The notes below the pieces were generated by a model. The model ran no database searches. It saw nothing but the letters and a program-made list of their open reading frames with translations, and was not told where the DNA came from. The position numbers and the translations under genes were made by a program. Positions 746 to 14,639 of a stretch of DNA of 64,000 bases are shown here, piece by piece. The DNA comes from Candidatus Dojkabacteria bacterium (lineage in GTDB: Bacteria > Patescibacteriota > Dojkabacteria > SC72), in NCBI GenBank assembly GCA_018056375.1, contig JAGPFQ010000001.1, forward strand, positions 167,995 through 231,994, given 5' to 3'. The stretch's first letter is position 1. Every line of letters starts with the position of its first letter.

Positions 746-2656
746 CTATGCCTCTGCGTTTAGCTTGTCGAGCTGTTGTTTGGCATAGAAGGTGAGGTTT
801 TTTCTCTTTGCCCACACCCTTTCTGTGCTTTTGAGGAGCTTCTTTCTAAGTCGGATATGCTTAGGTGTTACCTCTATCAACTCGTCATCTTTTATAAATG
901 ACAATGCATATTCAATGGTAAGTTGGATTGGTGTTTTAAGTGCAATCTCTGTCACCTGTGCATGGGACATCCTAACATTTGTCTTATGCCTCTCCTTACA
1001 TGGGTTTACCTCTATATCATCCGTTGTGTTAGTAACACCAATTATCATACCCTCATATACCTCTGTTGAACCTGATATAAAGAGTCTACCTCTCTCTTGA
1101 ACACTCATAAGGGCATATGCAAGAGCTGTACCAGTCTCTGATGATATGATAACTCCTTTTCTAAATAGTTCATCTCCTTTCTCATGAGGGACATATTCTA
1201 AAACAGCACTGTTGATAATGGCAGTACCCTTTGTTGCTGTCATTAAGTTCCTATGCAACCCAATTAAATTCCTAGTTAGAATATGATATGTAAACCTACT
1301 CTGTCCCTCTTCACTCTCCATATTAACCATCTTTCCTTTTCTCCCACTAACTTCTTCTGTAATTGCACTTAGGTATTCTTCTGGTGCATCAATGATTAAC
1401 TCCTCTAATGGCTCACACTCTACACCATCAATGTTTTGCAAAATAACCTCAGGCTTTCCTAATTCAAACTCATATCCTTCTCTTCTTAACTGTTCAACCA
1501 AGATTGCAAGTTGTAGTTCCCCTCTTCCAGAAACATAGTGGGCATTTGCACCTTTACTTTCAATCTTTAGACTAATATTTAACCTTTTCTCTTGGTCTAA
1601 CCTCTGTTGTAATTGTTTTGCAGTAACGAACTTACCTTCTTTTCCAACAAATGGAGATGTGTTAGCAGAGAACTTTACTCTAACTGTTGGAGGTGTAATC
1701 TTAATATCAGGCAATGGCTCTGGATTATCAACACTACAAAGTGTGGCACCAATATCTGTAGAATCAATACCAGTAACTGCAACAATCTCCCCTACTCCAG
1801 CTTCATTAATTGGAGTCCATTCTAACCCAACTTTAGTAAAAAGCTCATTAACTCTTCCCTGTTTCTTTTCAAAATCTTCTTGGTTAGAAACAAGAACAAT
1901 TGGATCTCCTACCTTTACTTTTCCATTTGATATCTTTCCAATCAAGTATCTTCCTAGATGTTCATCATATTCAATACTTGTTATCTGCATCTGAAATGGT
2001 TTGTTAATATCTCCACTTGGAGCAGGAAGATTTGTAACTATCTCATCTAATATTGGAGTTAGATCTCCTGTAGTACTATTTGGAATAGTCAAGTCTCCAG
2101 TAGGCATCTCTTTGAAAACTTTTCCTTCTCTGGATATTGCATAGTATATTGGGAAGTCTAGTTGCTCTTCTTTGGTAGCCAAAGAGAGGAAAAGATCATT
2201 GATTTTAGATGTAGTCTTTTCAATGTTAGCCAACTTCCTATCTATCTTGTTAATTATTACAACTGGCTTTAATCCTAATTCAAGAGCTTTCTTAAGAACG
2301 AATTTTGTTTGAGGCATAGTTCCTTCTTTTGCATCTACAAGTAGAAGACAACTATCTGCCATATTGAGAGTTCTTTCTACCTCTCCACCAAAATCAGAGT
2401 GTCCGGGTGTGTCAATTATATTTATCTTTACACCCTTGTACTTAATAGCGATATTCTTTGCACTGATTGTAATACCCTTCTCTTTTTCTAGTTCTCCTTT
2501 ATCTAGTATTCTTGTTTGTTGCATCTCCTCTTGGTTCTCTCTGAAGAGGTGTGTTTGCTTCATGAAGGCATCAACCAAGGTAGTTTTACCATGGTCTACA
2601 TGTGCGATGATAGCGATGTTTCTTAGGTTGTTTTTATCATTTATATTCTCTGACAT
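746..2656 (-). CDS. typA: translational GTPase TypA/BipA
   Basis: G1 motif AHVDHGKTT, DTPGH, NKID; EF-G-like domain order; 636 aa. Confidence 0.9.
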   Translation of the reverse strand: MSENINDKNNLRNIAIIAHVDHGKTTLVDAFMKQTHLFRENQEEMQQTRILDKGELEKEKGITISAKNIAIKYKGVKINIIDTPGHSDFGGEVERTLNMADSCLLLVDAKEGTMPQTKFVLKKALELGLKPVVIINKIDRKLANIEKTTSKINDLFLSLATKEEQLDFPIYYAISREGKVFKEMPTGDLTIPNSTTGDLTPILDEIVTNLPAPSGDINKPFQMQITSIEYDEHLGRYLIGKISNGKVKVGDPIVLVSNQEDFEKKQGRVNELFTKVGLEWTPINEAGVGEIVAVTGIDSTDIGATLCSVDNPEPLPDIKITPPTVRVKFSANTSPFVGKEGKFVTAKQLQQRLDQEKRLNISLKIESKGANAHYVSGRGELQLAILVEQLRREGYEFELGKPEVILQNIDGVECEPLEELIIDAPEEYLSAITEEVSGRKGKMVNMESEEGQSRFTYHILTRNLIGLHRNLMTATKGTAIINSAVLEYVPHEKGDELFRKGVIISSETGTALAYALMSVQERGRLFISGSTEVYEGMIIGVTNTTDDIEVNPCKERHKTNVRMSHAQVTEIALKTPIQLTIEYALSFIKDDELIEVTPKHIRLRKKLLKSTERVWAKRKNLTFYAKQQLDKLNAEA

Positions 2657-2724: not shown

Positions 2725-2753
2725 TTGAAAATCTTATAGGGTTTTGGTATAAT
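2725..2753 (+). promoter_or_regulatory. sigma70-like promoter for the giant surface-protein gene
   Basis: TTGAAA, 17-nt spacer, TGgTATAAT; about 70 nt upstream of the ATG at 2824. Confidence 0.45.
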
Positions 2754-2823: not shown

Positions 2824-5800
2824 ATGAAGTTAAACAAAAAATCTTTTTTGAAATCTTTGTATAAGGTTTCAACAGTCCTATTTTTAGTAGGATATAACTT
2901 TGCCCAACCATTTTTAGCTATTAGACAGTTGTTAGATATAGGAGGGGAAATTACTCCTGTGGCGGCTGCTGATGGGCCATATACTATTTCTTCTACTAGT
3001 GGTATTTGGACTAAGGTTGAAGGAACAAGTAACTATTCTGGTGTGAATACCAGTGAGATAAGATGGGGAACTGGAAACCCAAGAAGTGGACTGAAATTTA
3101 CTTCTGCTGGTACTCAAACTTTTGATGCTGATCAGAAATTCCTCATAGGAGATTTGACACATATGAACTGGCCAGTTTCTGGAGGTACTGCAGATTCTGC
3201 AACTCTAAAAGTTACTTTAAATTTTTCCCAACCTCCTCTTTCTCCAAATCCAACATTTTCATACAAGTTCAATATAAATGAGACAAGTAATGGCTATTCT
3301 CCTTATACAAATTGTCCAGGATATGCTATTGGTGAACAGTTAAGTAAAACCCCATGTGATGATGTAATTACATTTCCGAATGCATATGGTCAGGGAGTTT
3401 TTACAATTGGAGATATGAAATATACATTGAAGATTGATGGGTTCCAGAGTCAATATCCAACAGGGGATCCTGTATCTAAATTCATAACAGAAGAGAAGAA
3501 AAATAATGTAGCATACTTAGTTGGTCATTTAAGTTCTGTTTTAGTTGAAAAACCAGCAATTTCAATTGAAAAATATGTTGCTGCAGTTGTTGAAGGGGAG
3601 GAAGATGTTTGGCATGATGCAGATACTGCACCAGGTATGTATATTGGAAAAGGTGATGAGGTTAAATTTAAATATGTAGTTCAAAATACAGGTAATGTTA
3701 AATTGACAAACATAGTAGTAACAGATAATAAAGGAGTAACTGTATCTTGTCCTTCTCCTGCAGAATTAGAAGCTGGTGGTAAAATGACTTGTAATAGTGT
3801 TGGTAACTATTATGCAGATTTAGGACTTTATACAAATATTGGAACTGTTGAAGGAACTCATGCAGGAGGCACTGTTACAGCAAGTGATCCTGCAAACTAT
3901 ACAGGTGTGAATAAAATTAGAATTTGTCATGCAACTAAAAGTGGTGAGGTAAATCCATACAATAATGCACAGGCAAGTATGACAGGTGATGTTCAAGGAC
4001 ATGATTCTCATCATGGTAATGTTCCTCCAAGAGTTTGGTATCCAGGTATTCAAGGAACTTGGGATGATATTATTCCTCCGTTTAATAATGAAGGTATTAG
4101 TTATCCTGGGAAGAACTGGGATGCATACGGACAATCTGTATATTACAACAACTGTACAATTCCTACAGGGACACTAAAGGTTAATAAGGTAACCGTACCT
4201 GCTGGAGATAATACAGAATTTGCAATAACAGGTTCAGGAGAATCAGCAGTAACAGGTGCTCCTACATTTATGAATGGAAATACAGGAACAATATCAAGTG
4301 CTTCTTCACATACATTTACAGTGTATCCAGGTACCTACTCTGTTGCAGAAACAAAGACTGATGGTTGGAAAGAAGTAAGCAATACTTGTAAGGATATTGT
4401 AGTTGCAAATGGTAAGAATGAAGAATGTACAATTACTAATACTAAGTATAGTTCATTAACAATTATTAAGAATGCAACACCGAGAAGTGAAGAAGAATTT
4501 AGCTTTACCACAACAGGTGAAGGTTTGGAAAATTTCAAATTAGTAGATAACTCAGATACAAGTAATCCAAGTAAGGTGTTTGAGAATCTCTTACCAGGAA
4601 ATTACTCTGTTAATGAGATAATCCCAGAACAGTGGAATTGGTATTTAGATAAAGTTGAGTGTACAGATGGAAAAAACCATGAAGCACTTACACTCTCTGC
4701 AGGAGAAAATATTACATGTACATTTAATAATGTTGAGTATGGATCTATCTCAGGTCATAAATGGAATGACTTCGATGGTATTCCAGGTACTGCAGATGAT
4801 AAGCTCAACCCTATTAAAGATTGGACAATCTTCATTGATGCAAATAATAATAATATATTAGATCCAGGTGAGACATCTATGCTCACAGGTGTTGATGGTA
4901 AATACTCATTTACTAAGTTGGAACCAGGTACATATAAGATAATGGAAGTACTACAATTAGGTTGGATCAATATTACAGGTAAAAGTCAAAGTATTACAAT
5001 AACTGCAGGAGAGAACAGAGTAGATGTTGATTTCAGCAATGTTAAATATCCAACAATTCAGGTTATTAAGAATGTAGATACAGATGGTAATGGTTCAGTT
5101 GATAAGGAGAATGCAAAAGATTGGACATGGAAACTAGGAGTTAATGAGACATATGATACAGGTATAGATCCTGTTGAGAAGATGCCAGGTACATATACTA
5201 TCTCAGAGGTTCAGAAAGATAACTATCATGTGACATCATTAGTATGTACTAAGAATGGTACTGAAATAGTTAATAAAGTAAGTGAAAGTACAGATATTAC
5301 ATTACAATCAGGAGATAAAGTAGTATGTACATTTACTAACACAAGAGATACAGGTACATTGATTGTCCAGAAAGTAGTTGTTAATGATAATGGTGGAGAA
5401 CTCAAGGCAGGTAATTTCTCATTCAAAGTAAATAATGGTGCTACTGTAACATTCAATCAAAGTACAGCAAATCCTTTATTCGGTGAGAATACAATTACAA
5501 AAGTTCCAACAGGTTCCTACTCTATTGTAGAGGTAGAAGCAGATCAAAGAGGATATGCTACTACATACAGTAATGATTGTAATGGACAATTAAATAAAGG
5601 TGATATTAAAACCTGTGTAATTACAAATAATGATAATGCACCAAAATTAGAGTTAGTAAAAACAGTTACAAATGATAATGGAGGTACATTAGGTATAGAG
5701 AATTGGAAACTAATAGCTGATGATGGAGAGGCATCAATTAGTGGATTTGGTGGTGTTGTAAGTGGAGATAACTTCAAAGCAGGAACATATACATTAAGTG

Positions 5801-8646
5801 AAGAAGGTAAAGAAGGTGTAGATGTATCAGGATACAAAGCAGGTAACTGGAGTTGTGAAGGTGCAACTGTAAATGGTAATCAAGTAGTTGTTCCATTCCA
5901 AGGAAATGTTAAATGTACAATTAACAATAATGATATTGCACCCAAACTTACACTTAACAAAATAGTTTCTAATACACATGGAGGAAACAATCCAGAGTCT
6001 GATTGGATGCTCTACGCTACTAAAGATAATGTTGTTGCACTCTCAGGAGCAGGAGCAGAAGGAGATGCAGATGTAGTAAGTGGAGAAACATTCCAAGCAG
6101 GTACATATACATTAAGTGAAGAAGGTAAAGAAGGTGTAGATGTCTCAGGATATACAGCAAGTGATTGGGAATGTATTGGTGGTGTACAAAATGGAAGTAC
6201 TATAAAATTAGGTGTTGGCGAAGAAGCAGTATGTAGTATTACAAATAGTGATACTCCTGCTCAATTGACTGTCATCAAACAAGTTAAGAACGATGATGGT
6301 GGACAAGCAACAGTAGAAGAGTTTGAAATTAAGAATAACGGTACCAAACTTACATTTGGAACAGGTTCTACAACAGGTGATATTACAGAATATAAATCTA
6401 CTCCAGCTGTAGAATCTAATACAACATATACACTTACTGAAAAAGATCACTATGGATACACAGAAGGTACTTGGACATGTATTGATGATGTTGCTAAAAC
6501 ACCAGTTGATCACCCAGTAACCTTGAAAGAAGGACAGAAAGTAACTTGTACAGTTCTAAACGATGATATTGCACCAAAGTTAACAATAGTTAAAAACCTT
6601 AATATTCAATATGGTGGTACAGCACAACCAGATGACTTTAAATTAACAGTTGGTGGTGTCGGAGTATTATCTGGCGAAACAAACGAGTATCTTGCAAATA
6701 CACCTTATGCAATAAATGAGAAATCATTCGTTGGTTATGAGTTTGTATCAATCACAGGAAGTAATAAATGTCCTGCTGTATTAGGAGGAACAATAACTCT
6801 TGATTTGGCTGATAATATTACTTGTACAATTACAAACAAAGATTTACCAGCAACAGTTACAGTATACAAAGATGTCTTAGATGGATTCTCTAACGATATC
6901 TTTAAGGTTCAGCTTGAAGATGGAGGTGAGAAGCTAGATATCAGCGATACAAAAGAAGCTGATGATAGATTAGTAGCAGTATTTAGAGACTTAGATCGTG
7001 GAGAATACTACCCAGAGGAAGTTGAACTTCCAGATGGATATATAGCTGAAGGTTGTGTTCCATTAGAAGGTTCTAGCAATACTGTTGAGAATGGTATGGG
7101 AATTGAGTTTGTATGTACAAACAAAGTAATTGATCCTCTTCTTAATATTGAAAAGAGCAATGATAAACAACATATAGATCAATATGCAGGTGATGAGGTT
7201 ACATACACAATCACAGTAACAGCACCTGAAGATGGAGAGAAAGGTACATATGTATTAAATAATGTAGTAGTCTCAGACATTGCTCCAGCAGGATTCAAAT
7301 ATATCTCTGGAACATGGACAGCACAGAAGAATGGTGTTGATATCTCAGTACCAGAGCCTACATACGATGATAAAGGTCAAGCAAAATGGAATATTGGAGA
7401 TATGAAAGAAGGAGATGTAGTTGTATTAACATACAAGACTAGAATCTCTCTTCTACAAGATCCAGGTAACTATCCAGATATTGCATGGGTAGAAGGTAAA
7501 TCACTAATAGATGGTCAAGTATTAGGTGCTTCTACAGTAGATCCAGAAACACCATTTGTAGGTACTGATGTAACAGTAATAGATCCAATTGAAACAGAAG
7601 AAGGAGAAGTATTAGGTGCATCAATTACTCTACCAGTAACAGGTGCAAGTACATATCTAACATTAGGTGCATTAATTATGATGTTCTTAGGTGCAATTAC
7701 CCTACTCCTTAAACCATTCAAGAAGTTAAGCTATGCTCTTCTTACTGGTTTAATGGCACTATCATTTGTAACTCTACTTACTCCTAACAGAGTATTAGCA
7801 GCAGACAGTGATATTCAGGTAAGAATAATGCAACCTGCAACTCCAACAAACAAAACTAGCTTTAATGTTGGATTTGTAGCACTAGACCTTAACAACAAAG
7901 AGGTTACAGTAGAATGTTACAAAGATGGTACATTGTTCAAAACAATTCCTAATGCAAATGCAGGAAATTGTCCAGCAACAGTAGATGCAAGTGGAACATA
8001 TACTTTCTATGTCATTGCAAAATCTGCTTCTGGTGAACAAAAATCAGAAGATGCAATAGTTGTTGTAGACTTAGTAAAACCATCACCTGTAATTGACTAC
8101 TCAAAGGCAGGTAATGTGATTAAGTTCAAAACAGGAAATGATGCAAAGGTTGTGAAGGTTGAAATTCACAGATCTACAACTCCTAAATATACTGCAAATG
8201 AAAGTACGAGGGTTAAGACCATGAATGTAGAGCCAAATGAAGAGTATTCATGGACAGATACAACAGCAGAAGCAGGAAAGACATACTACTATGCTCTTAG
8301 AACAGTAGATGCTATCGGTAATACATCTACAATTGTATCAGACCCTGAGGTAGTAGAAGTACCTGCAGCAACTACAGGTACTGCAACCACAATAGCAACT
8401 ACAAATACAAGAACAGGAGATGTTGCAGGTCAAACAGATACAAAGAAAGAAGGAGAAGTTGCAGGTGAGACAGATGATATTACAGAAGGTGAAGATACAG
8501 AAGTAAAGAAGACAGAAGAAGGTAAAGAGAAAGTAGATATTAAGGAAACAGGAAAGAATATTTTAAGTAAATGGTACTTCTGGGTAATAGTAGTTGTAGT
8601 CATTGGAGGAGTAGCATTCTATGTCAGAAAACAAAAGAGTAATTAA
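2824..8646 (+). CDS. giant multi-domain surface adhesin / pilin-like sortase substrate (Cna-B/SpaA-type repeats) with internal LPVTG sorting signal and in-frame C-terminal Fn3 module
   Basis: N-terminal signal peptide; more than 8 repeats of G-T-Y-x-[LI]-x-E...G[YW] motifs typical of Cna-B/SpaA domains; LPVTG plus 22 hydrophobic residues plus KPFKK at aa 1603-1634; the ORF then continues for 306 aa (signal-peptide-like stretch, Fn3-like YYYALRTVDAIGNTS, IKETG plus TM plus RKQKSN). Confidence 0.8.
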   Translation: MKLNKKSFLKSLYKVSTVLFLVGYNFAQPFLAIRQLLDIGGEITPVAAADGPYTISSTSGIWTKVEGTSNYSGVNTSEIRWGTGNPRSGLKFTSAGTQTFDADQKFLIGDLTHMNWPVSGGTADSATLKVTLNFSQPPLSPNPTFSYKFNINETSNGYSPYTNCPGYAIGEQLSKTPCDDVITFPNAYGQGVFTIGDMKYTLKIDGFQSQYPTGDPVSKFITEEKKNNVAYLVGHLSSVLVEKPAISIEKYVAAVVEGEEDVWHDADTAPGMYIGKGDEVKFKYVVQNTGNVKLTNIVVTDNKGVTVSCPSPAELEAGGKMTCNSVGNYYADLGLYTNIGTVEGTHAGGTVTASDPANYTGVNKIRICHATKSGEVNPYNNAQASMTGDVQGHDSHHGNVPPRVWYPGIQGTWDDIIPPFNNEGISYPGKNWDAYGQSVYYNNCTIPTGTLKVNKVTVPAGDNTEFAITGSGESAVTGAPTFMNGNTGTISSASSHTFTVYPGTYSVAETKTDGWKEVSNTCKDIVVANGKNEECTITNTKYSSLTIIKNATPRSEEEFSFTTTGEGLENFKLVDNSDTSNPSKVFENLLPGNYSVNEIIPEQWNWYLDKVECTDGKNHEALTLSAGENITCTFNNVEYGSISGHKWNDFDGIPGTADDKLNPIKDWTIFIDANNNNILDPGETSMLTGVDGKYSFTKLEPGTYKIMEVLQLGWINITGKSQSITITAGENRVDVDFSNVKYPTIQVIKNVDTDGNGSVDKENAKDWTWKLGVNETYDTGIDPVEKMPGTYTISEVQKDNYHVTSLVCTKNGTEIVNKVSESTDITLQSGDKVVCTFTNTRDTGTLIVQKVVVNDNGGELKAGNFSFKVNNGATVTFNQSTANPLFGENTITKVPTGSYSIVEVEADQRGYATTYSNDCNGQLNKGDIKTCVITNNDNAPKLELVKTVTNDNGGTLGIENWKLIADDGEASISGFGGVVSGDNFKAGTYTLSEEGKEGVDVSGYKAGNWSCEGATVNGNQVVVPFQGNVKCTINNNDIAPKLTLNKIVSNTHGGNNPESDWMLYATKDNVVALSGAGAEGDADVVSGETFQAGTYTLSEEGKEGVDVSGYTASDWECIGGVQNGSTIKLGVGEEAVCSITNSDTPAQLTVIKQVKNDDGGQATVEEFEIKNNGTKLTFGTGSTTGDITEYKSTPAVESNTTYTLTEKDHYGYTEGTWTCIDDVAKTPVDHPVTLKEGQKVTCTVLNDDIAPKLTIVKNLNIQYGGTAQPDDFKLTVGGVGVLSGETNEYLANTPYAINEKSFVGYEFVSITGSNKCPAVLGGTITLDLADNITCTITNKDLPATVTVYKDVLDGFSNDIFKVQLEDGGEKLDISDTKEADDRLVAVFRDLDRGEYYPEEVELPDGYIAEGCVPLEGSSNTVENGMGIEFVCTNKVIDPLLNIEKSNDKQHIDQYAGDEVTYTITVTAPEDGEKGTYVLNNVVVSDIAPAGFKYISGTWTAQKNGVDISVPEPTYDDKGQAKWNIGDMKEGDVVVLTYKTRISLLQDPGNYPDIAWVEGKSLIDGQVLGASTVDPETPFVGTDVTVIDPIETEEGEVLGASITLPVTGASTYLTLGALIMMFLGAITLLLKPFKKLSYALLTGLMALSFVTLLTPNRVLAADSDIQVRIMQPATPTNKTSFNVGFVALDLNNKEVTVECYKDGTLFKTIPNANAGNCPATVDASGTYTFYVIAKSASGEQKSEDAIVVVDLVKPSPVIDYSKAGNVIKFKTGNDAKVVKVEIHRSTTPKYTANESTRVKTMNVEPNEEYSWTDTTAEAGKTYYYALRTVDAIGNTSTIVSDPEVVEVPAATTGTATTIATTNTRTGDVAGQTDTKKEGEVAGETDDITEGEDTEVKKTEEGKEKVDIKETGKNILSKWYFWVIVVVVIGGVAFYVRKQKSN

Positions 8647-9289
8647 CAAAAAGGTTCTAGTAGGAGTAATATTACTCCTGCTAGGCCTCACTGCCCTTCT
8701 TTTGACATACAGGCCAGTAATCAAGGCTAAGATATCGCAATATAGATTTTCAGAACCATCAACTAGCAATGTAGTTCTCTCTAAGGATGGAGATATTACT
8801 AAAGAGATTAAACCAGAAACAAAAGAAGTAATCCTAGATTCAAAGTTTGGTTTGTATATTCCAAAGATTAAATCAAATGCATCAGTAGTTGCTAATGTAA
8901 GTCCATACAAAGAAGCTGAATATATTAAAGCATTAGAAACAGGTATTGCACATGCAAAAGGTACAGTCACACCAGACAAGAAAGGTAATGTATTTCTCTT
9001 TGCACACTCAGCAGTAAATTTCTATGAAAGAAACAAATATGATGTATACTTCTATCTCCTTCATGAATTAAAGAAAGATGATGAAATATTTGTAAGTTAT
9101 AACGGTATTATCTACAAATACAGAGTTCAAGAGGTAAAGATTGTTAACAGAGATGATGTTAAATATCTAAGTAAGTACTCTGATGAGGATACTCTAACCT
9201 TAATGACCTGCTATCCTGCAGGTACAGACTGGAAGAGAACAATAGTTATCGCTTACAGAGACTCTCAAGAACCTATTGTTGAGAAATAA
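8621..9289 (+). CDS. sortase (transpeptidase), membrane-anchored
   Basis: N-terminal TM; active-site His (FLFAHS), TLMTC catalytic Cys motif and downstream Arg; start overlaps the adhesin stop by 26 nt. Confidence 0.8.
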   Translation: MSENKRVINKKVLVGVILLLLGLTALLLTYRPVIKAKISQYRFSEPSTSNVVLSKDGDITKEIKPETKEVILDSKFGLYIPKIKSNASVVANVSPYKEAEYIKALETGIAHAKGTVTPDKKGNVFLFAHSAVNFYERNKYDVYFYLLHELKKDDEIFVSYNGIIYKYRVQEVKIVNRDDVKYLSKYSDEDTLTLMTCYPAGTDWKRTIVIAYRDSQEPIVEK

Positions 9290-9359: not shown

Positions 9360-9743
9360 ATGACAAAAAGACATCAAGTATACAAATGTAATATTTGTGG
9401 AAATATTGTAGAAGTACTACATGAAGGAGCAGGTACATTAGTATGTTGTGCTCAAGATATGGTTCTTTTTGAAGAGAAAAAAGAAGAAGAAGGTAATGAA
9501 AAGCATCTTCCTGTTGTAAAGGTAGAAGGAAACAAAGTTATTGTAGAAGTTGGTTCAGTCCCCCATCCTATGGAAGAAGTTCACTACATTGAGTGGATTG
9601 AAGTAATTAATGGAGATGAAAGTAAAAAAGTATTCCTTAAACCAAATCAAGAACCTAAAGCAGAATTCCTTTTTGAAAATATTGGTGAATTAAGAGTTAG
9701 AGAATATTGCAATCTACATGGTCTTTGGGAAACAGTAGTTTAA
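9360..9743 (+). CDS. desulfoferrodoxin-type superoxide reductase
   Basis: N-terminal desulforedoxin CxxC...CC cluster and C-terminal neelaredoxin His/Glu ligands (HPMEEVHYIEWI). Confidence 0.8.
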   Translation: MTKRHQVYKCNICGNIVEVLHEGAGTLVCCAQDMVLFEEKKEEEGNEKHLPVVKVEGNKVIVEVGSVPHPMEEVHYIEWIEVINGDESKKVFLKPNQEPKAEFLFENIGELRVREYCNLHGLWETVV

Positions 9744-10160
9744 CTACTTCATAACCGAAAAAGAGACTTTTGCCTTCTCACTTGCTGTGAACTGGCCTTT
9801 CTCTTCAAACTCCTCAATAACTTGAACACAAGCAGTATCTTCTTCAGGTTTTGCTATCTTAAGTACAACAGACACCTGTTCTGGATATGACTCTAAAATT
9901 AATGTTTCTACTGATGCTTTATGACATGGAGATGGTAATTGTCCTTTTACAGTATATTCCCAAGTATTTTCTTTAGTATATTCTGCTACAAAATCAAAAC
10001 CCTCCTTACTATCCTCTATTCTTAAATTCTCTGTTGTTTTACTATTATCAACATCAGCTACCCTATCTTTAACAAAAAATACTTGGTAGAGAATACCTCC
10101 AACTACAATTAGTAAAAAAAGTAAAACTCCTATTCCTATAACTCCTTTCTTGTTATCCAT
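9744..10160 (-). CDS. hypothetical membrane-anchored protein (single N-terminal TM)
   Basis: ORF of 138 aa with a hydrophobic N-terminus; no recognisable domain. Confidence 0.45.
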   Translation of the reverse strand: MDNKKGVIGIGVLLFLLIVVGGILYQVFFVKDRVADVDNSKTTENLRIEDSKEGFDFVAEYTKENTWEYTVKGQLPSPCHKASVETLILESYPEQVSVVLKIAKPEEDTACVQVIEEFEEKGQFTASEKAKVSFSVMK

Positions 10161-10781
10161 TTATTTCTTCTTTTTAATATTACTTTTTCTTGTCTTAACA
10201 GAATATATTAAGAGAGCCCAAAGACTTCCAGCCATCATAATGCATCCTGATGCCATCATAATAATATCAAAATGTGTCTGTCCTAAGCTAGCCAATGATC
10301 CTACTAGTAAACTGATAACTGCAGTACTAAAGCTGATGAGGGTTTCGTAGAATGCATACTGAAATCCCTCTATACCACTATCTACATTCATTGCAAAGAG
10401 CTTTCTCCAATTTGTAACATTAAAACAAGCTCCTAAACCAAAAACAAATTGAAGGATATAGTAATGAATCGGTTGAGAAATCAGTGGATACATAGTGTAA
10501 GGTAGGCCCATTAATATGATTCCTGCGGCTAAAAGTAGTATCTCATCCTTATCTCCCTTAATCTTGTCTGTTAGTGTGCCCATTGGTATTTGGAAAATTG
10601 CTCTAGTAGTGAAATATATTGCAGTACCGATACCTACAAACTTTACAGCATCTACACCTAATCTAGTTGAAAGATAGACACCAGAAAGTGAAGTGATGAT
10701 AAGGAAAGGTCCCCATGTAAATACATCAGCGAGAGTTAACAACGTTACAATTTTGTTTCCTTTCTTCAACCATCTCTTCAT
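10161..10781 (-). CDS. polytopic membrane protein (about 6 TM, possibly a half-size MFS-like transporter)
   Basis: 206 aa, multiple hydrophobic segments, basic C-terminus. Confidence 0.45.
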   Translation of the reverse strand: MKRWLKKGNKIVTLLTLADVFTWGPFLIITSLSGVYLSTRLGVDAVKFVGIGTAIYFTTRAIFQIPMGTLTDKIKGDKDEILLLAAGIILMGLPYTMYPLISQPIHYYILQFVFGLGACFNVTNWRKLFAMNVDSGIEGFQYAFYETLISFSTAVISLLVGSLASLGQTHFDIIMMASGCIMMAGSLWALLIYSVKTRKSNIKKKK

Positions 10782-10832: not shown

Positions 10833-12449
10833 ATGAATCTGCTCCAATCTGAATATTTAAATATTGTTTTAATAGCGATATCTTCTGTAATTCTATTTCT
10901 TTTTGCTATTGAAAGTCTAAGTTCTCAGCTACAAAAAGTAGCTACAGAAGGTTTTAGAAAGAAAATATCTGTATTTGTAAAGAATAGGTTCTCAGGAGCA
11001 CTTGTAGGTGCGGTTTTTACAGCATTTGTTCAATCTAGCTCTGCTGTTACAGCCATAGCTATATCCTTAGTTAATCTAGGAGTAATATCTTTTAGAAGTA
11101 GTTTAGGAATAATATTTGGTAGTAGTATTGGAACAACAATTACTGCACAATTGGCTCTGGTTTCCTCTACATCAATTGGTGCAATTATTCTAATCATTGG
11201 TTTTCTATTGAGATTTTTAGGTCCTAAGTTTAAAGAGATTAGTAAATCTGTATTCTTCTTAGGTTTTGTATTGTTTGCATTAAATATTATTACAACCAGT
11301 ATTGAACCTTTAAAAACAAATCCTGCATTTGTTAATCTTTTTAGCTATCTTTCTAATCCATTAGTTTCATACACAGTATCTTGTCTGTTTACAATATTAG
11401 TGCATTCTAGTTCTATTACATCAGGTCTTCTGGTTGTTTTGGTAGCACAGGGAATTATACCTGTGGAGATAGCAATACCTGTGGTTCTTGGAGCTAACTT
11501 AGGTACAGGTATTTCAACATTCTTGGTTTCTAAAGATTTAAATCTTTTTGGTAAGAGAGCAGGATATGCAAATGTAGTGTTTAGGGCTGTAGGGACTCTT
11601 GCTTTTATGCTCTTTGTACCATCTTTCATATCGTTACTTGAATCTCTTACCTCTAACCCGGCACAGCAGGTTGCACTTGGACATTTACTTTTTAATTTAA
11701 TCAACTCTTTGGTTTTCTTAATATTCTTAACACCTTTTGAGAAGTTTATAGTGAAAATAGTACCTGGAGAGGAAGAGGAGATACTCTTTGAAACAAAGTA
11801 TATTGATATGAAGAAGAAAAAGGGTTTGAAAGGAAGATTGTTGGATATTAAAAAAGAGATAGCCTACTCTCTTGAGAATACACAGAAGATATACAAGAAA
11901 GCATTAAGCATGTACTATGATCCCTCTCCTGTTACTTCTATAGATATTGATAAATTTGAGACATTAAACGACTATCTGGATGATGAAATTACTGCTGCTT
12001 TGCTCTCTCTCTCTGAGTACCAATTAGATAAGAAGAGAGCAAAAGAAACAGTAACTCTTGTAAAGGTGTCAAATACAATTGAACAATTGGGAGATTTAGC
12101 TTTAGATTTGGAGAATGTTTTTACTAAGTTACATAAAAGGGGAATTTCAAAAGATGATGTTCAGATAGAGAAGATCACTGAGATGTTTAATAAATTGATG
12201 GTACTTTTTGATTTGATAAAGGAGCAAGTTCTATCACCAAAGGAGAAGGAGTTGGTGAAGGTTAAGGAGAAGGAAGAGGAAATCTACTTTGTCGTGAACA
12301 GTGCCTTTAATTCCCATGTACAGAAACTACAAGAAGAAGGGAAATATCATGGAAATACATTTGTAGACTCAGTATCTATTATAGAAGCATCTGTCTCTAA
12401 GCTGAGAGACATTAGAAAACTACTCTTAAGACATGTAAGAAGTAGTTAG
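10833..12449 (+). CDS. Na+/phosphate cotransporter (NptA/YjbB family) with C-terminal PhoU-like domain
   Basis: duplicated QSSSA/S-rich Na/Pi cotransporter motifs in the membrane domain; long helical cytoplasmic tail. Confidence 0.75.
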   Translation: MNLLQSEYLNIVLIAISSVILFLFAIESLSSQLQKVATEGFRKKISVFVKNRFSGALVGAVFTAFVQSSSAVTAIAISLVNLGVISFRSSLGIIFGSSIGTTITAQLALVSSTSIGAIILIIGFLLRFLGPKFKEISKSVFFLGFVLFALNIITTSIEPLKTNPAFVNLFSYLSNPLVSYTVSCLFTILVHSSSITSGLLVVLVAQGIIPVEIAIPVVLGANLGTGISTFLVSKDLNLFGKRAGYANVVFRAVGTLAFMLFVPSFISLLESLTSNPAQQVALGHLLFNLINSLVFLIFLTPFEKFIVKIVPGEEEEILFETKYIDMKKKKGLKGRLLDIKKEIAYSLENTQKIYKKALSMYYDPSPVTSIDIDKFETLNDYLDDEITAALLSLSEYQLDKKRAKETVTLVKVSNTIEQLGDLALDLENVFTKLHKRGISKDDVQIEKITEMFNKLMVLFDLIKEQVLSPKEKELVKVKEKEEEIYFVVNSAFNSHVQKLQEEGKYHGNTFVDSVSIIEASVSKLRDIRKLLLRHVRSS

Positions 12450-13489
12450 ATAATATTTACCTCGCTAGTTAATTCTACTCCATACTCATCCATAACACTC
12501 TTTTTCATTGCTTCGATATAGTCGAGAATTTCCTTTCCTGTTGCTTTCATATTTGTTACTACACAGAGTGCATGTCTTTCAAATGTTGCTACATTACCAA
12601 TCTTCTTTCCTTTCCAACCTAGCTCATCTAGTAATCTTCCAGCAGGAATCTTTAGATACTCTTCACTGTATCCTTCTGCAGGGTATGATTGAAGTTCCTC
12701 TATTATTTTAGATAGCTCATTAAATTTCTCTACAGTTACAATTGGATTAGCAAAGAAACTTCCAGCTGTTCCATATTCTTCTACACTAGGTAATCTCTTT
12801 CCTCTCTGCCTAATGATAGCTTCCATAACTTCTTGAATACTGTATGGCTCTTTAGCAAAAGAGTCTAATTCTTCTTTTAGAGACCCATATCTTCCTGCTC
12901 TTTCATGGTAGCTAAGTTCAAATTCTTTTGTATGTTTTGTTAGTTTAAATATTGTTGATGTAATTAGGTATTTGTTTTGCCATATGTTCTTAAAATTGCT
13001 TTTTCTGTATCCATATCCACACTCTTCTGGTTTTATAACCTTCTCTTCGAATGTTTTGATATCTAGGATATTTATCTTTTCAACAACCTTACTTATCTCT
13101 TGTCCATATGCACCGATATTTTGAGATACACCACCTCCAACAGTACCTGGTATCATAACCATATTCTCAATTCCAGCATAGTCATTCTTAACACACCATC
13201 TTACAAATTCATCCCAAATCTCTCCTGCACTAGCTTGAACATATACATATTTTTCATCTTCTTTAACTACATTTATTCCTTTTAACTTAGGGATTAGTAC
13301 TAGTCCATCCCAATCTTTTGTGAACAATGTGTTACTTCCACCTCCAAGGATAATGAGGTTTTCATCTTTGAACTTTTCTAGAACCTCTTTTATCTCTTCA
13401 ATTGTTTGAGGTATTGCTAGATATTTAGCTTTTACATCTACCTTAAAGGTATTGTAATCCTTTAATGAGGTGTTTTTTTTGATGTTCAT
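12446..13489 (-). CDS. murB: UDP-N-acetylenolpyruvoylglucosamine reductase MurB
   Basis: FAD-binding GGGSN motif, MurB C-terminal domain. Confidence 0.8.
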   Translation of the reverse strand: MNIKKNTSLKDYNTFKVDVKAKYLAIPQTIEEIKEVLEKFKDENLIILGGGSNTLFTKDWDGLVLIPKLKGINVVKEDEKYVYVQASAGEIWDEFVRWCVKNDYAGIENMVMIPGTVGGGVSQNIGAYGQEISKVVEKINILDIKTFEEKVIKPEECGYGYRKSNFKNIWQNKYLITSTIFKLTKHTKEFELSYHERAGRYGSLKEELDSFAKEPYSIQEVMEAIIRQRGKRLPSVEEYGTAGSFFANPIVTVEKFNELSKIIEELQSYPAEGYSEEYLKIPAGRLLDELGWKGKKIGNVATFERHALCVVTNMKATGKEILDYIEAMKKSVMDEYGVELTSEVNII

Positions 13490-13502
13490 ATATTTTAATT
13501 GT

Positions 13503-14639
13503 TTATTTTATATATCTCCTTGGAACTCTCTCAGTTACATTTGCTAAGAGGTTCCACATTGAGTGTCCAGACCATTTTGATACTTCCCAGAGTTTAATAT
13601 TCTCTCCCCACAATTCAACATCGTCATTAACATATGCAGTTCCATCTGTTCCTAATCCAACCATCATTTGATCCATGCAAATCCTACCTAGGACTGGAAA
13701 GATATTCTTACTCTGTTTGTATTTAGGATTGTTAATATACACCCACCCTTTGTTTGACAAGTCTCTTGAATATCCATCAGCATATCCAACAGGAATGGTA
13801 ATGATTCGTTCATCTTCCTTTGTCTTGTATGTTCTTGCATATCCAACACTATTTCCCTTTTCTAATACTTTAAAGAAGAGTACTTTTGTTTTGAAATGCA
13901 TTACTGGTTTTAGTTTTTTCTGTAGATTTCTGTTTAGACTGTAGCCATACATCATTATTCCAGGTCTTACCATTGTGAAGAATGAGGATTCTAAATTTCT
14001 TGAGATTGCACCACTATTTGCTAGGTGTATCAATGGAGGAAGTTTGTAATTTAACTCTATGTATTTAAGAACTTCATTAAATCTCTTTAATTGAATTGTT
14101 GTAAACTTAGGGTCTTGGTATGAATCTACAAAATGTGAGAATATTCCAACAATATCTAAATTAGGGAGAGTATATGCTTTCTTAATGAATTCTTCCTTTC
14201 TATCCCACTGTACCCCTATTCTTCCCATACCGGTATCGATTTTAAGGTGTACCTTAGCTGTCTTTTTCAACTTTTTAGCTCTTCTAGAAATCTTTTCTAA
14301 CTTCTCGATGGAAGAACCTGTGAAATCAACATCATGTTTGAGATAAGGATCTAGTTGTGAGTCATCTGTCTCCCCTAGTACTAGAATGGGTATTTTAATA
14401 CCATTCTCTCTTAGATATACAGCTTCTTCTATATATGCGACTCCTAGATAGTCAATTTTAAGTTTTTGTAGTCTTTTTGAGATTTCTACAAGTCCATGAC
14501 CGTATGCATTAGCTTTCACTATACCTAATATTTTTCTTTTACCAACAATCCTTTTAATGACCTTAATATTCTCATCTATATTTTTTAGATATATTTCTGC
14601 TCTTGTTGGTCTGTTTTCAAAGATTTTACTTGTAAACAT
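13503..14639 (-). CDS. alr: alanine racemase
   Basis: PLP-lysine motif VKANAYGHG; N-terminal TIM-barrel plus C-terminal beta domain; 378 aa. Confidence 0.85.
   Translation of the reverse strand: MFTSKIFENRPTRAEIYLKNIDENIKVIKRIVGKRKILGIVKANAYGHGLVEISKRLQKLKIDYLGVAYIEEAVYLRENGIKIPILVLGETDDSQLDPYLKHDVDFTGSSIEKLEKISRRAKKLKKTAKVHLKIDTGMGRIGVQWDRKEEFIKKAYTLPNLDIVGIFSHFVDSYQDPKFTTIQLKRFNEVLKYIELNYKLPPLIHLANSGAISRNLESSFFTMVRPGIMMYGYSLNRNLQKKLKPVMHFKTKVLFFKVLEKGNSVGYARTYKTKEDERIITIPVGYADGYSRDLSNKGWVYINNPKYKQSKNIFPVLGRICMDQMMVGLGTDGTAYVNDDVELWGENIKLWEVSKWSGHSMWNLLANVTERVPRRYIK

Follow-up and report, generated by a model that had tools for sequence, protein, structure and literature searches.

Cell-wall anchoring of LPXTG proteins by sortases is well established in Gram-positive bacteria, where SrtA of Staphylococcus aureus is the paradigm, and the sorting signals involved are normally C-terminal. 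The structural polyprotein of flaviviruses, in turn, is processed at internal signal peptides by signal peptidase. The construction of the cell surface is poorly understood in bacteria of the candidate phyla radiation (CPR, or Patescibacteria), which live attached to host cells. Here, we analyze a stretch of 64,000 nucleotides (64 kb; hereafter the window; GC content 33.6%) from a Candidatus Dojkabacteria bacterium (contig JAGPFQ010000001.1, positions 167,995 to 231,994), whose close relatives are named Candidatus Dojkabacteria (WS6) and belong to the CPR. It carries a giant open reading frame (ORF) that encodes an adhesin with an internal LPVTG motif and, overlapping the 3' end of this ORF, a sortase gene. 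A sortase family is reported to occur in over half of the CPR genomes and to be near-ubiquitous in Microgenomates (PMC6744442), so that the presence of a sortase as such, part of what an earlier note on this DNA had called notable, is not new. Two further systems bear on the locus. SpaA_2, SpaA_4, DUF7507 and DUF11/CLIPPER have been described as predicted isopeptide-bond stalk domains of fibrillar adhesins (PMC12617251), and PamR, a Sec-exported tandem fibronectin type III (FnIII, Fn3) protein with a C-terminal transmembrane (TM) helix from the Pam pilus operon of CPR bacteria, has been proposed to tether the filament to the membrane (preprint 10.64898/2026.03.03.709456).

We find that the locus as a whole is best explained as a two-protein precursor with the sortase gene as its translationally coupled third part, an interpretation that we hold to be probable. 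The stretch behind LPVTG includes a separate module of ~280 residues, comprising a signal-peptide-like helix, an AxA site, an immunoglobulin (Ig)-like and an Fn3-like domain, an acidic linker, a TM segment and a basic tail. Comparison with its homologues shows this module to be a protein in its own right, which also occurs independently and here brings an internal signal peptide along, a point that the earlier note had missed.

The segment containing LPVTG has the make-up of an LPXTG sorting signal, with a conserved pentapeptide followed by a hydrophobic segment (TM1) and then a basic patch (KPFKK), except that it does not stand at the extreme C-terminus, as 333 residues follow the motif. Among fused relatives, P, T and G of LPxTG are present in all 103 and L in 100 of 103, and a basic loop occupies the position of KPFKK in every fused locus inspected. 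Judged by these features, LPVTG is a genuine sortase motif, though an internal one. TM1 was also considered as an unusually conserved segment and rejected, its majority frequency being 0.45 compared to 0.48–0.56 for the ectodomains.

Upstream of LPxTG, an element of the form G-[EQ]-V-L-G-A-[ST] is present in 98 of 104 fused relatives. The wider pattern G-[EQD]-V-[LA]-G occurs four times in the window (7513-7527, 7603-7617, 8416-8430 and 8452-8466) and nowhere else in its ORFs of at least 150 amino acids (aa); two copies lie at the end of the adhesin (GQVLG and GEVLG) and two in the linker of the module (GDVAG and GEVAG). The related [VI]LG element (G-x-[VI]-L-G) was found in 57 of 101 module linkers against 3.7 expected, a ~15-fold enrichment over shuffles, typically 11-25 residues before the TM segment. 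This GxVLG element, of which GDVAG and GEVAG are the variants in the window, might serve in sortase docking or form part of a strand; it might also be what is left of a former sorting signal. We also observed that the Leu-Pro of the sortase motif is lost in some Moranbacteria-type fused relatives (L023, ~3900-4100; P0160 and P0225), in which the region reads VLGAATGTETSW.

TM2, the segment behind the basic patch, ends in a predicted signal peptidase I site, VLA/AD, between positions 7800 and 7801 (after A1659), and the Ala at -1 is at least 90% conserved. In 31 of the 35 fused loci parsed by pattern, an AxA-like site precedes the conserved mature start VRIxQPxxPTN by 3-8 aa; such a site is recognizable by eye in most of the fused loci outside this set. 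The predicted topology fits the positive-inside rule: the adhesin is outside, TM1 crosses from out to in, KPFKK is inside, TM2 crosses from in to out, the module is outside, TM3 crosses from out to in, and the terminal RKQKSN is inside. Consequently, KPFKK would have two roles, forming the charged tail of one signal, the sorting signal, and the n-region of another, the signal peptide that follows.

An AlphaFold (AF2) model of the module, built with 42 family sequences, reveals two beta-sandwich domains with a predicted local distance difference test (pLDDT) score above 90, then a disordered linker and then a terminal helix. The Foldseek matches are generic tandem Fn3/Ig structures (CbhA Fn3 modules, neogenin, SiiE and RbmA), and the CnaA/CnaB pilin fold is absent among them. 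Pfam and NCBIfam searches with the module gave nothing above noise (Ig_J_second at 14.9 bits and EssA at 14.3 bits), and a profile search returned 1754 clusters at 50% identity, 489 of these at E ≤ 1e-30. According to these searches, the module represents a large uncharacterized protein family with no Pfam or NCBIfam model. Its Ig-like domain carries an invariant Cys pair (aa 1733 and 1751). A further Cys pair, located in the Fn3-like domain (consensus SC…PDC), is found in most members from outside Dojkabacteria but not in the protein of the window.

The module also exists as a protein of its own. The more distant homologues (P0009, P0010 and ~41 of the top 150 representatives) are stand-alone proteins of 300-345 aa. 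They start with a Sec signal peptide of the classical kind, share both domains and the acidic linker with the module, and end in a TM segment with a basic tail. On the contig of P0009, a gene for a SpaA-like adhesin of more than 2875 aa is followed by the module gene, which overlaps it by 8 nt, and 4 nt later by the sortase gene. When one genome per species was scanned, 74 loci were obtained; the CPR genomes that carry them are of Dojka-, Shapiro-, Gottesman-, Moran-, Roizman-, Levy-, Parcu- and WWE3-type. The module is in frame with the upstream adhesin, directly behind an [LM]PxTG-TM-basic segment, in 51 of 73 loci; it is a separate gene in ~15 loci, and the upstream ORF there ends in ...VLGAS-x-x-LPATG-TM-RRK, a normal C-terminal sorting signal. 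Similarly, 101 of the 108 giant family representatives have the internal motif 280-420 residues from their end. Since the fusion recurs in these independent loci and representatives, and since the one apparent split in a close relative (L001) is explained by a scaffold gap (see below), we regard the adhesin-module fusion as real, ancient or recurrent, and no artefact. Apparently separate genes in close relatives (P0001, P0002 and P0006, starting MMILG within TM1) were rejected as artefactual splits; database proteins beginning MMILG… are truncated gene calls from inside TM1.

We note that this CPR-type cassette is carried by many metagenome-assembled genome (MAG) records that go under the titles 'uncultured Gammaproteobacteria', 'Bdellovibrionales' or 'Pseudomonadales' (L020, L022, L025, L029-L031, L037, L039, L040, L043, L050, L051, L054, L055, L059 and L064-L073), and that one isolate name contains 'PATE'. 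These non-CPR titles are probably taxonomic mislabels.

The protein encoded by the overlapping gene is, by sequence and predicted fold, a bona fide sortase, as the earlier note had said, with predicted transpeptidase activity. It scores above the curated cut-offs of two hidden Markov models (HMMs), Pfam Sortase PF04203 (84.1 vs 26.6 bits) and TIGR01076 (58.8 vs 39.35), and His129, Cys197 and Arg206 as well as Met1 are invariant in 46 sortase homologues. The AF2 model has the beta-barrel fold and matches solved sortases at E ~1e-11 in Foldseek. Among solved enzymes, pilin polymerases of class C come closest, with classes E, D and A following within about tenfold in E-value, so that the classes are inseparable by this measure and a Foldseek-based assignment was rejected. 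The earlier note had suggested placing the enzyme in class A, C or E by HMM, and no NCBIfam class model reaches its cut-off (score/cut-off: SrtD-LPxTATN 71.1/140, C 65.9/160, D 62.3/165, E 46.4/160, GN 32.9/158, F 21.1/166); models of class A and class B were not listed for this sortase at E ≤ 0.01. The enzyme is thus outside every class cut-off. Neither a DP[WFY] lid motif nor a C-terminal TM helix is present in it, the sole hydrophobic segment being residues 6-34. The window contains one sortase and one credible LPxTG signal, that of the giant ORF, and to this extent the description of the enzyme as dedicated holds.

The proposal of the earlier note that this gene is translationally coupled to the giant ORF is well supported by comparison of loci, and the coupling is deeply conserved, with a nearly absolute linkage of module and sortase. 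The sortase is directly downstream of the module in 64 of ~70 module-seeded loci. In an independent metagenome scan, seeded with the sortase, the module ends at the sortase start in 61 of 61 loci for which at least 400 nt upstream are available. Counted from the first ATG of the sortase, the overlap with the module ORF measures 1-56 nt in 54 of 64 loci, and the relative frame is identical in 53 of 55. In fact, in 49 of 53 loci, across CPR phyla, this ATG is nested in TAT-Gnn (Tyr followed by Val, Ala or Gly) at the cytoplasmic end of TM3. In the window, no start other than the ATG at 8621 retains the N-terminal membrane helix of the sortase; this ATG precedes the end of the adhesin stop codon by 26 nt and is nested in the codons of Tyr1933-Val1934 (TAT GTC, 8620-8625). 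As a result of this nesting, the basic tail of the module and the basic N-terminus of the sortase are dual-coded by one A-rich stretch. The idea that a Shine-Dalgarno-like sequence generally accompanies the overlap was rejected, as such a sequence is found in 20 of 58 loci, essentially in Dojkabacteria only.

The stalk of the adhesin is made up of SpaA_2 (five copies), SpaA_4, SpaA, DUF7507 and DUF11/CLIPPER domains according to Pfam and NCBIfam HMMs, and the choice-of-anchor K domain at its N-terminus matches NF038131 at 103 bits. Six E-box-like motifs (Y-x-[ILVM]-x-E...G/W-Y/W) lie within the SpaA-type domains, which suggests intramolecular isopeptide bonds in the adhesin. The best promoter-like match between 2500 and 9500 lies ~70 nt upstream of the giant ORF, and no intrinsic-terminator-like site was found in this range, including downstream of the sortase. 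Among the neighbors, the two adjacent ORFs encode 138 aa with no Pfam match and 206 aa matching MFS_1, and might be a split MFS gene. The neighbor gene order is the same in L001, an 82%-identical relative.

Table 1. Features of the adhesin-module-sortase locus and its neighbors (positions refer to the window; TM, transmembrane segment)
Feature	Position	Strand	Description
Promoter-like site	2725..2753	+	TTGAAA-17-TATAAT with TG extension (extended -10); consensus match only, 11/12
Giant ORF	2824..8646	+	1940 aa; adhesin, predicted internal sorting signal and second protein module
Fibrillar adhesin part	2824..7629	+	aa 1-1602; N-terminal signal peptide, then choice-of-anchor K domain, then stalk
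GEVLGAS element	7603..7623	+	directly before the sorting motif; earlier copy GQVLG at 7513-7527
LPVTG, predicted sortase motif	7630..7644	+	aa 1603-1607; internal, 333 residues C-terminal to motif
TM1, hydrophobic segment of predicted sorting signal (YLTLGALIMMFLGAITLLL)	7654..7710	+	aa 1611-1629
KPFKK, basic cytoplasmic patch	7711..7725	+	aa 1630-1634; putative charged tail of sorting signal and n-region of next signal peptide
TM2, internal signal-peptide-like segment (LSYALLTGLMALSFVTLL-TPNRVLA)	7726..7800	+	aligns with N-terminal Sec signal peptides of stand-alone members
Module ectodomain	7801..8358	+	Ig-like domain and Fn3-like domain; pLDDT >90 (AF2)
Disordered linker	8359..8571	+	T/E/K/G-rich; contains GDVAG (8416-8430) and GEVAG (8452-8466)
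IKETG	8539..8553	+	aa 1906-1910; followed by KNILSK, hydrophobic core and RKQKSN-stop
TM3, predicted stop-transfer membrane anchor of module (WYFWVIVVVVIGGVAFYV)	8572..8625	+	hydrophobic core W1917-V1934, 18 residues
GGAGG, Shine-Dalgarno-like sequence	8605..8609	+	in Ile-Gly-Gly codons of TM3, 11 nt before sortase ATG
RKQKSN, basic cytoplasmic tail, and stop	8626..8646	+	stop 8644-8646; dual-coded with sortase N-terminus MSENKRVIN
Sortase	8621..9289	+	222 aa; N-terminal TM anchor; catalytic His129 (9005-9007), Cys197 in TLMTC (9209-9211), Arg206 (9236-9238)
TypA/BipA	746-2656	-	neighbor
Desulfoferrodoxin	9360-9743	+	neighbor
Two adjacent ORFs	9744-10781	-	neighbors
Na/Pi cotransporter	10833-12449	+	neighbor
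MurB and alanine racemase	12446-14639	-	neighbors

As a two-protein precursor, the giant ORF would be processed as follows. Residues 1-1602 would be a Sec-exported fibrillar adhesin that ends in GEVLGAS-x-x-LPVTG, TM1 and KPFKK. With no stop codon after this sorting signal, KPFKK would serve as the n-region for TM2, which would re-export the Ig-like/Fn3-like/acidic-linker module, and TM3 with RKQKSN would keep the module in the membrane as a plain stop-transfer anchor. The sortase would be translated from the ATG nested at the cytoplasmic end of TM3, so that all three parts are made together. By analogy with known sortases, the enzyme would then cut LPVTG between Thr and Gly and move the adhesin to a peptidoglycan precursor; such precursors are made, judging by the genes for MurB and alanine racemase 3-5 kb downstream. 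Signal peptidase I would cut after A1659, so that a type-I membrane protein remains besides a small hairpin of TM1, loop and TM2. The obligate pairing of the module with the sortase and the juxtamembrane enrichment of G-x-[VI]-L-G suggest that the module could be a membrane partner of the enzyme, perhaps as a scaffold or tether, and its juxtamembrane GxV(L/A)G may even mimic the pre-LPxTG element of the substrate while offering no cleavable motif; we put forward both ideas with low confidence.

Several points weigh against this interpretation. Both cleavages, by sortase and by signal peptidase, are inferred from motif conservation and Gram-positive analogy, and an internal signal peptide behind a TM hairpin could stay uncleaved as a signal anchor. 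The fused relatives that have lost the Leu-Pro (VLGAATGTE...) retain TM1, TM2, the module and the overlapping sortase. The acceptor of the adhesin may be peptidoglycan or a Lys on another protein, and any role of the module is a guess as long as its modeled folds are generic Ig and Fn3. Synthesis of an enzyme at 1:1:1 with its substrate is unusual. Finally, that the sortase is dedicated to this adhesin holds for the 64-kb window only.

The tight pairing of module and sortase (61 of 61 loci), and their synthesis at 1:1, would also fit a different role for the module, i.e., that of an acceptor or basal subunit. Thr1606 would then be joined to an amine of the module, e.g., that of Lys1761, to give a covalent, membrane-tethered fibre with no wall anchoring. 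Lys1761 (module K137), which belongs to a Y-S-K in the Fn3-like domain, shows a conservation of at least 90%, and in the closer set Y-x-K does not vary at all; moreover, the closest solved sortases are pilin polymerases, and PamR, likewise a tandem-FnIII protein with a C-terminal TM, is the proposed tether of another CPR filament (preprint 10.64898/2026.03.03.709456). However, Y-x-K lies in the A-strand of the Fn3 domain and may be purely structural, no YPKN-type motif is present, and genes for peptidoglycan synthesis are at hand. Cutting a fusion only to rejoin both of its parts would also bring no obvious benefit. We therefore consider an acceptor role unlikely.

Alternatively, the internal LPVTG might stay unprocessed, leaving an intact three-pass membrane protein with two ectodomains, and the sortase would act on substrates elsewhere in the genome. 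This would agree with the usual C-terminal position of sorting signals and with the few relatives that keep the layout despite a damaged motif. The near-complete conservation of L, P, T and G in the fused forms, as in those where the signal is truly C-terminal, argues against it, as does the fact that this sortase clade never occurs without the cassette in the 61 sampled loci and that the window holds no other LPxTG candidate. We judge this reading quite improbable.

The earlier note had taken the extreme C-terminus of the giant ORF, i.e., IKETG, a helix and RKQKSN, for a degenerate second sorting signal, to be cut by the coupled sortase in the manner of a Gram-positive pilus cluster. Its sequence facts are all correct, including the position of the sortase ATG. 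Its hydrophobic helix of 23 residues corresponds to the C-terminal helix of the AF2 model only if the basic tail is included; the hydrophobic core is 18 residues long. The layout of a motif-like pentapeptide, a helix and a basic tail is indeed present, and W1917-V1934 with RKQKSN has the hydrophobic segment and basic tail expected of a sorting signal, but equally fits any stop-transfer anchor: a C-terminal TM is found in 154 of 159 family sequences, and the basic tail is conserved family-wide too. IKETG itself has Lys in place of the Pro at position 2 of LPXTG, a Pro that is present in 103 of 103 true motifs, and its likeness to LPXTG is confined to one aliphatic residue and TG. It is part of a disordered linker with pLDDT below 55, whose composition (23% T, 17% E, 11% G and 9% K) is rich in the very residues of the motif.

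The homologues give the same picture. When the last 351 residues of the giant ORF were searched against the protein collection, intact IKETG was confined to relatives of 82-92% identity. A pattern [IVL][KE]ET[GASTV] is kept among the closest Dojkabacteria, with the last residue varying between G, A, S, T and V; the next relatives have IKETA, VKETT, VKETS and VKETV, those at ~55-60% identity VELTP, and further out nothing is recognizable (VELTP or nothing at 50-60% identity). The survey for a conserved (I/L)KETG that the earlier note had suggested thus ends in decay of the motif, already within the genus-level clade, the outcome by which that note itself would have the idea given up. Among family representatives, LPxTG is found in 0 of 153 module tails, and the loose motif [LIVM][PAK]x[TS][GAS] precedes the C-terminal helix in 6 of 154. 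The lone strict LPxTG before a C-terminal helix among 154 family sequences belongs to P0011, which is a frameshifted adhesin fragment and no module tail. Nor do we find the surroundings of a pilus cluster, since the giant ORF contains no [YF]PK and hence no YPKN-type pilin motif, the window no second LPxTG pilin gene, and the sortase neither of the class C features named above. The GxVLG-type element shared by the module tail and the true sorting region could mean that the tail descends from a sorting signal. In sum, the missing Pro, the T/E/K/G-rich disordered linker, the decay in relatives and the absence of LPxTG from all 153 tails lead us to reject IKETG as a sorting signal: it is, as far as sequences can tell, a chance look-alike, and TM3 with RKQKSN a plain stop-transfer anchor. 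A second sorting signal at this site is highly improbable.

That the fusion is an assembly or sequencing artefact joining two adjacent genes is next to inconceivable, since the errors that do exist in database entries (in L001 a 10-N scaffold gap at 7793-7802 that shifts the frame; in P0011/P0005, from one 37.6-kb ENA contig, frameshifts) split genes rather than fuse them, and the fused frame is shared by 51 independent loci, which represent many assemblies and phyla, as well as by 101 of the 108 giant representatives.

By its conservation, the locus is a CPR unit of adhesin, Ig/Fn3 anchor protein and sortase, usually laid out as a polyprotein with an overlapping sortase gene, and a large clade of CPR sortases seems to have this cassette as its usual setting, in which a giant isopeptide-domain adhesin, a membrane protein and a sortase would be co-translated. 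More tentatively, and with rather less confidence than in the precursor itself, we propose a CPR-wide, undescribed surface-display cassette. Sortase and signal peptidase would split its product, with an internal LPxTG and an internal signal peptide, into two proteins, an isopeptide-domain adhesin anchored to the wall and a tandem Ig/Fn3 protein anchored in the membrane; the latter would be the obligate partner of a class-unassigned CPR sortase clade, with GxVLG maybe docking the sortase as an uncleavable pseudo-substrate. In the searchable literature, which is incomplete and as such weak evidence, we found no description of an internal LPxTG with a second protein or of the three-part cassette, and only passing mentions of CPR sortases. 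If an LPxTG does work mid-polypeptide, with an internal signal peptide behind it, the rules for sortase substrates would have to be extended, and the cassette would provide a rare bacterial case of polyprotein-style maturation at the membrane. For annotation, it follows that LPxTG in CPR proteins should be searched for beyond C-termini, and that the anchor of the module should not be called a sorting signal. The cassette also supplies defined peptides (EGEVLGASITLPVTGASTY and EKVDIKETGKNILSK) and constructs for first biochemical work on a CPR sortase.

Compared to Gram-positive LPXTG/sortase anchoring, the cassette shares the pentapeptide, the hydrophobic segment and the basic tail, a membrane-anchored Cys transpeptidase with His, Cys and Arg, and the presence of peptidoglycan genes. 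It differs in that the signal is internal, with a second protein in frame behind it, that G-[EQ]-VLGA[ST] precedes the motif, that the sortase gene and its partner upstream share an overlap whose frame is conserved, and that the sortase reaches no A-F class cut-off. Similarly to class C/SpaA-type pilus clusters, the sortase adjoins a SpaA-like/CnaB-type isopeptide-domain protein with E-box-like motifs, and its closest solved structures are of class C. In contrast to these clusters, the substrate is one giant adhesin and no polymerized pilin, and YPKN, a second LPxTG subunit, the DP[WFY] lid and the C-terminal sortase TM are all missing. A self-contained cassette with one sortase beside one target is also known from dedicated pairs, namely class GN ('marine', TIGR03784) and SrtD with LPxTATN proteins; the CPR sortase scores far below the cut-offs of both HMMs (GN 32.9 vs 158; SrtD 71.1 vs 140), and those pairs have neither an obligate third Ig/Fn3 membrane protein nor a fusion.

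The module resembles PamR by architecture only, both having a signal peptide, tandem FnIII-like domains and a C-terminal TM helix; Vibrio cholerae RbmA, the structural match of PamR, is among the Foldseek matches of the module at rank 33. Pam pili differ in using donor-strand exchange with chaperones, with no sortase and no LPxTG, whereas the local context of the module is an adhesin and a sortase, and no Pap-like chaperones are seen in the neighboring genes. Finally, compared to polyproteins of the flavivirus type, the cassette lies on a bacterial chromosome and its first cut would be made by a sortase, whereas flaviviruses are viruses of eukaryotes. What the two have in common is a stop-transfer helix followed by a signal-peptide-like helix with an AxA site, an arrangement that in both would separate two exported products.

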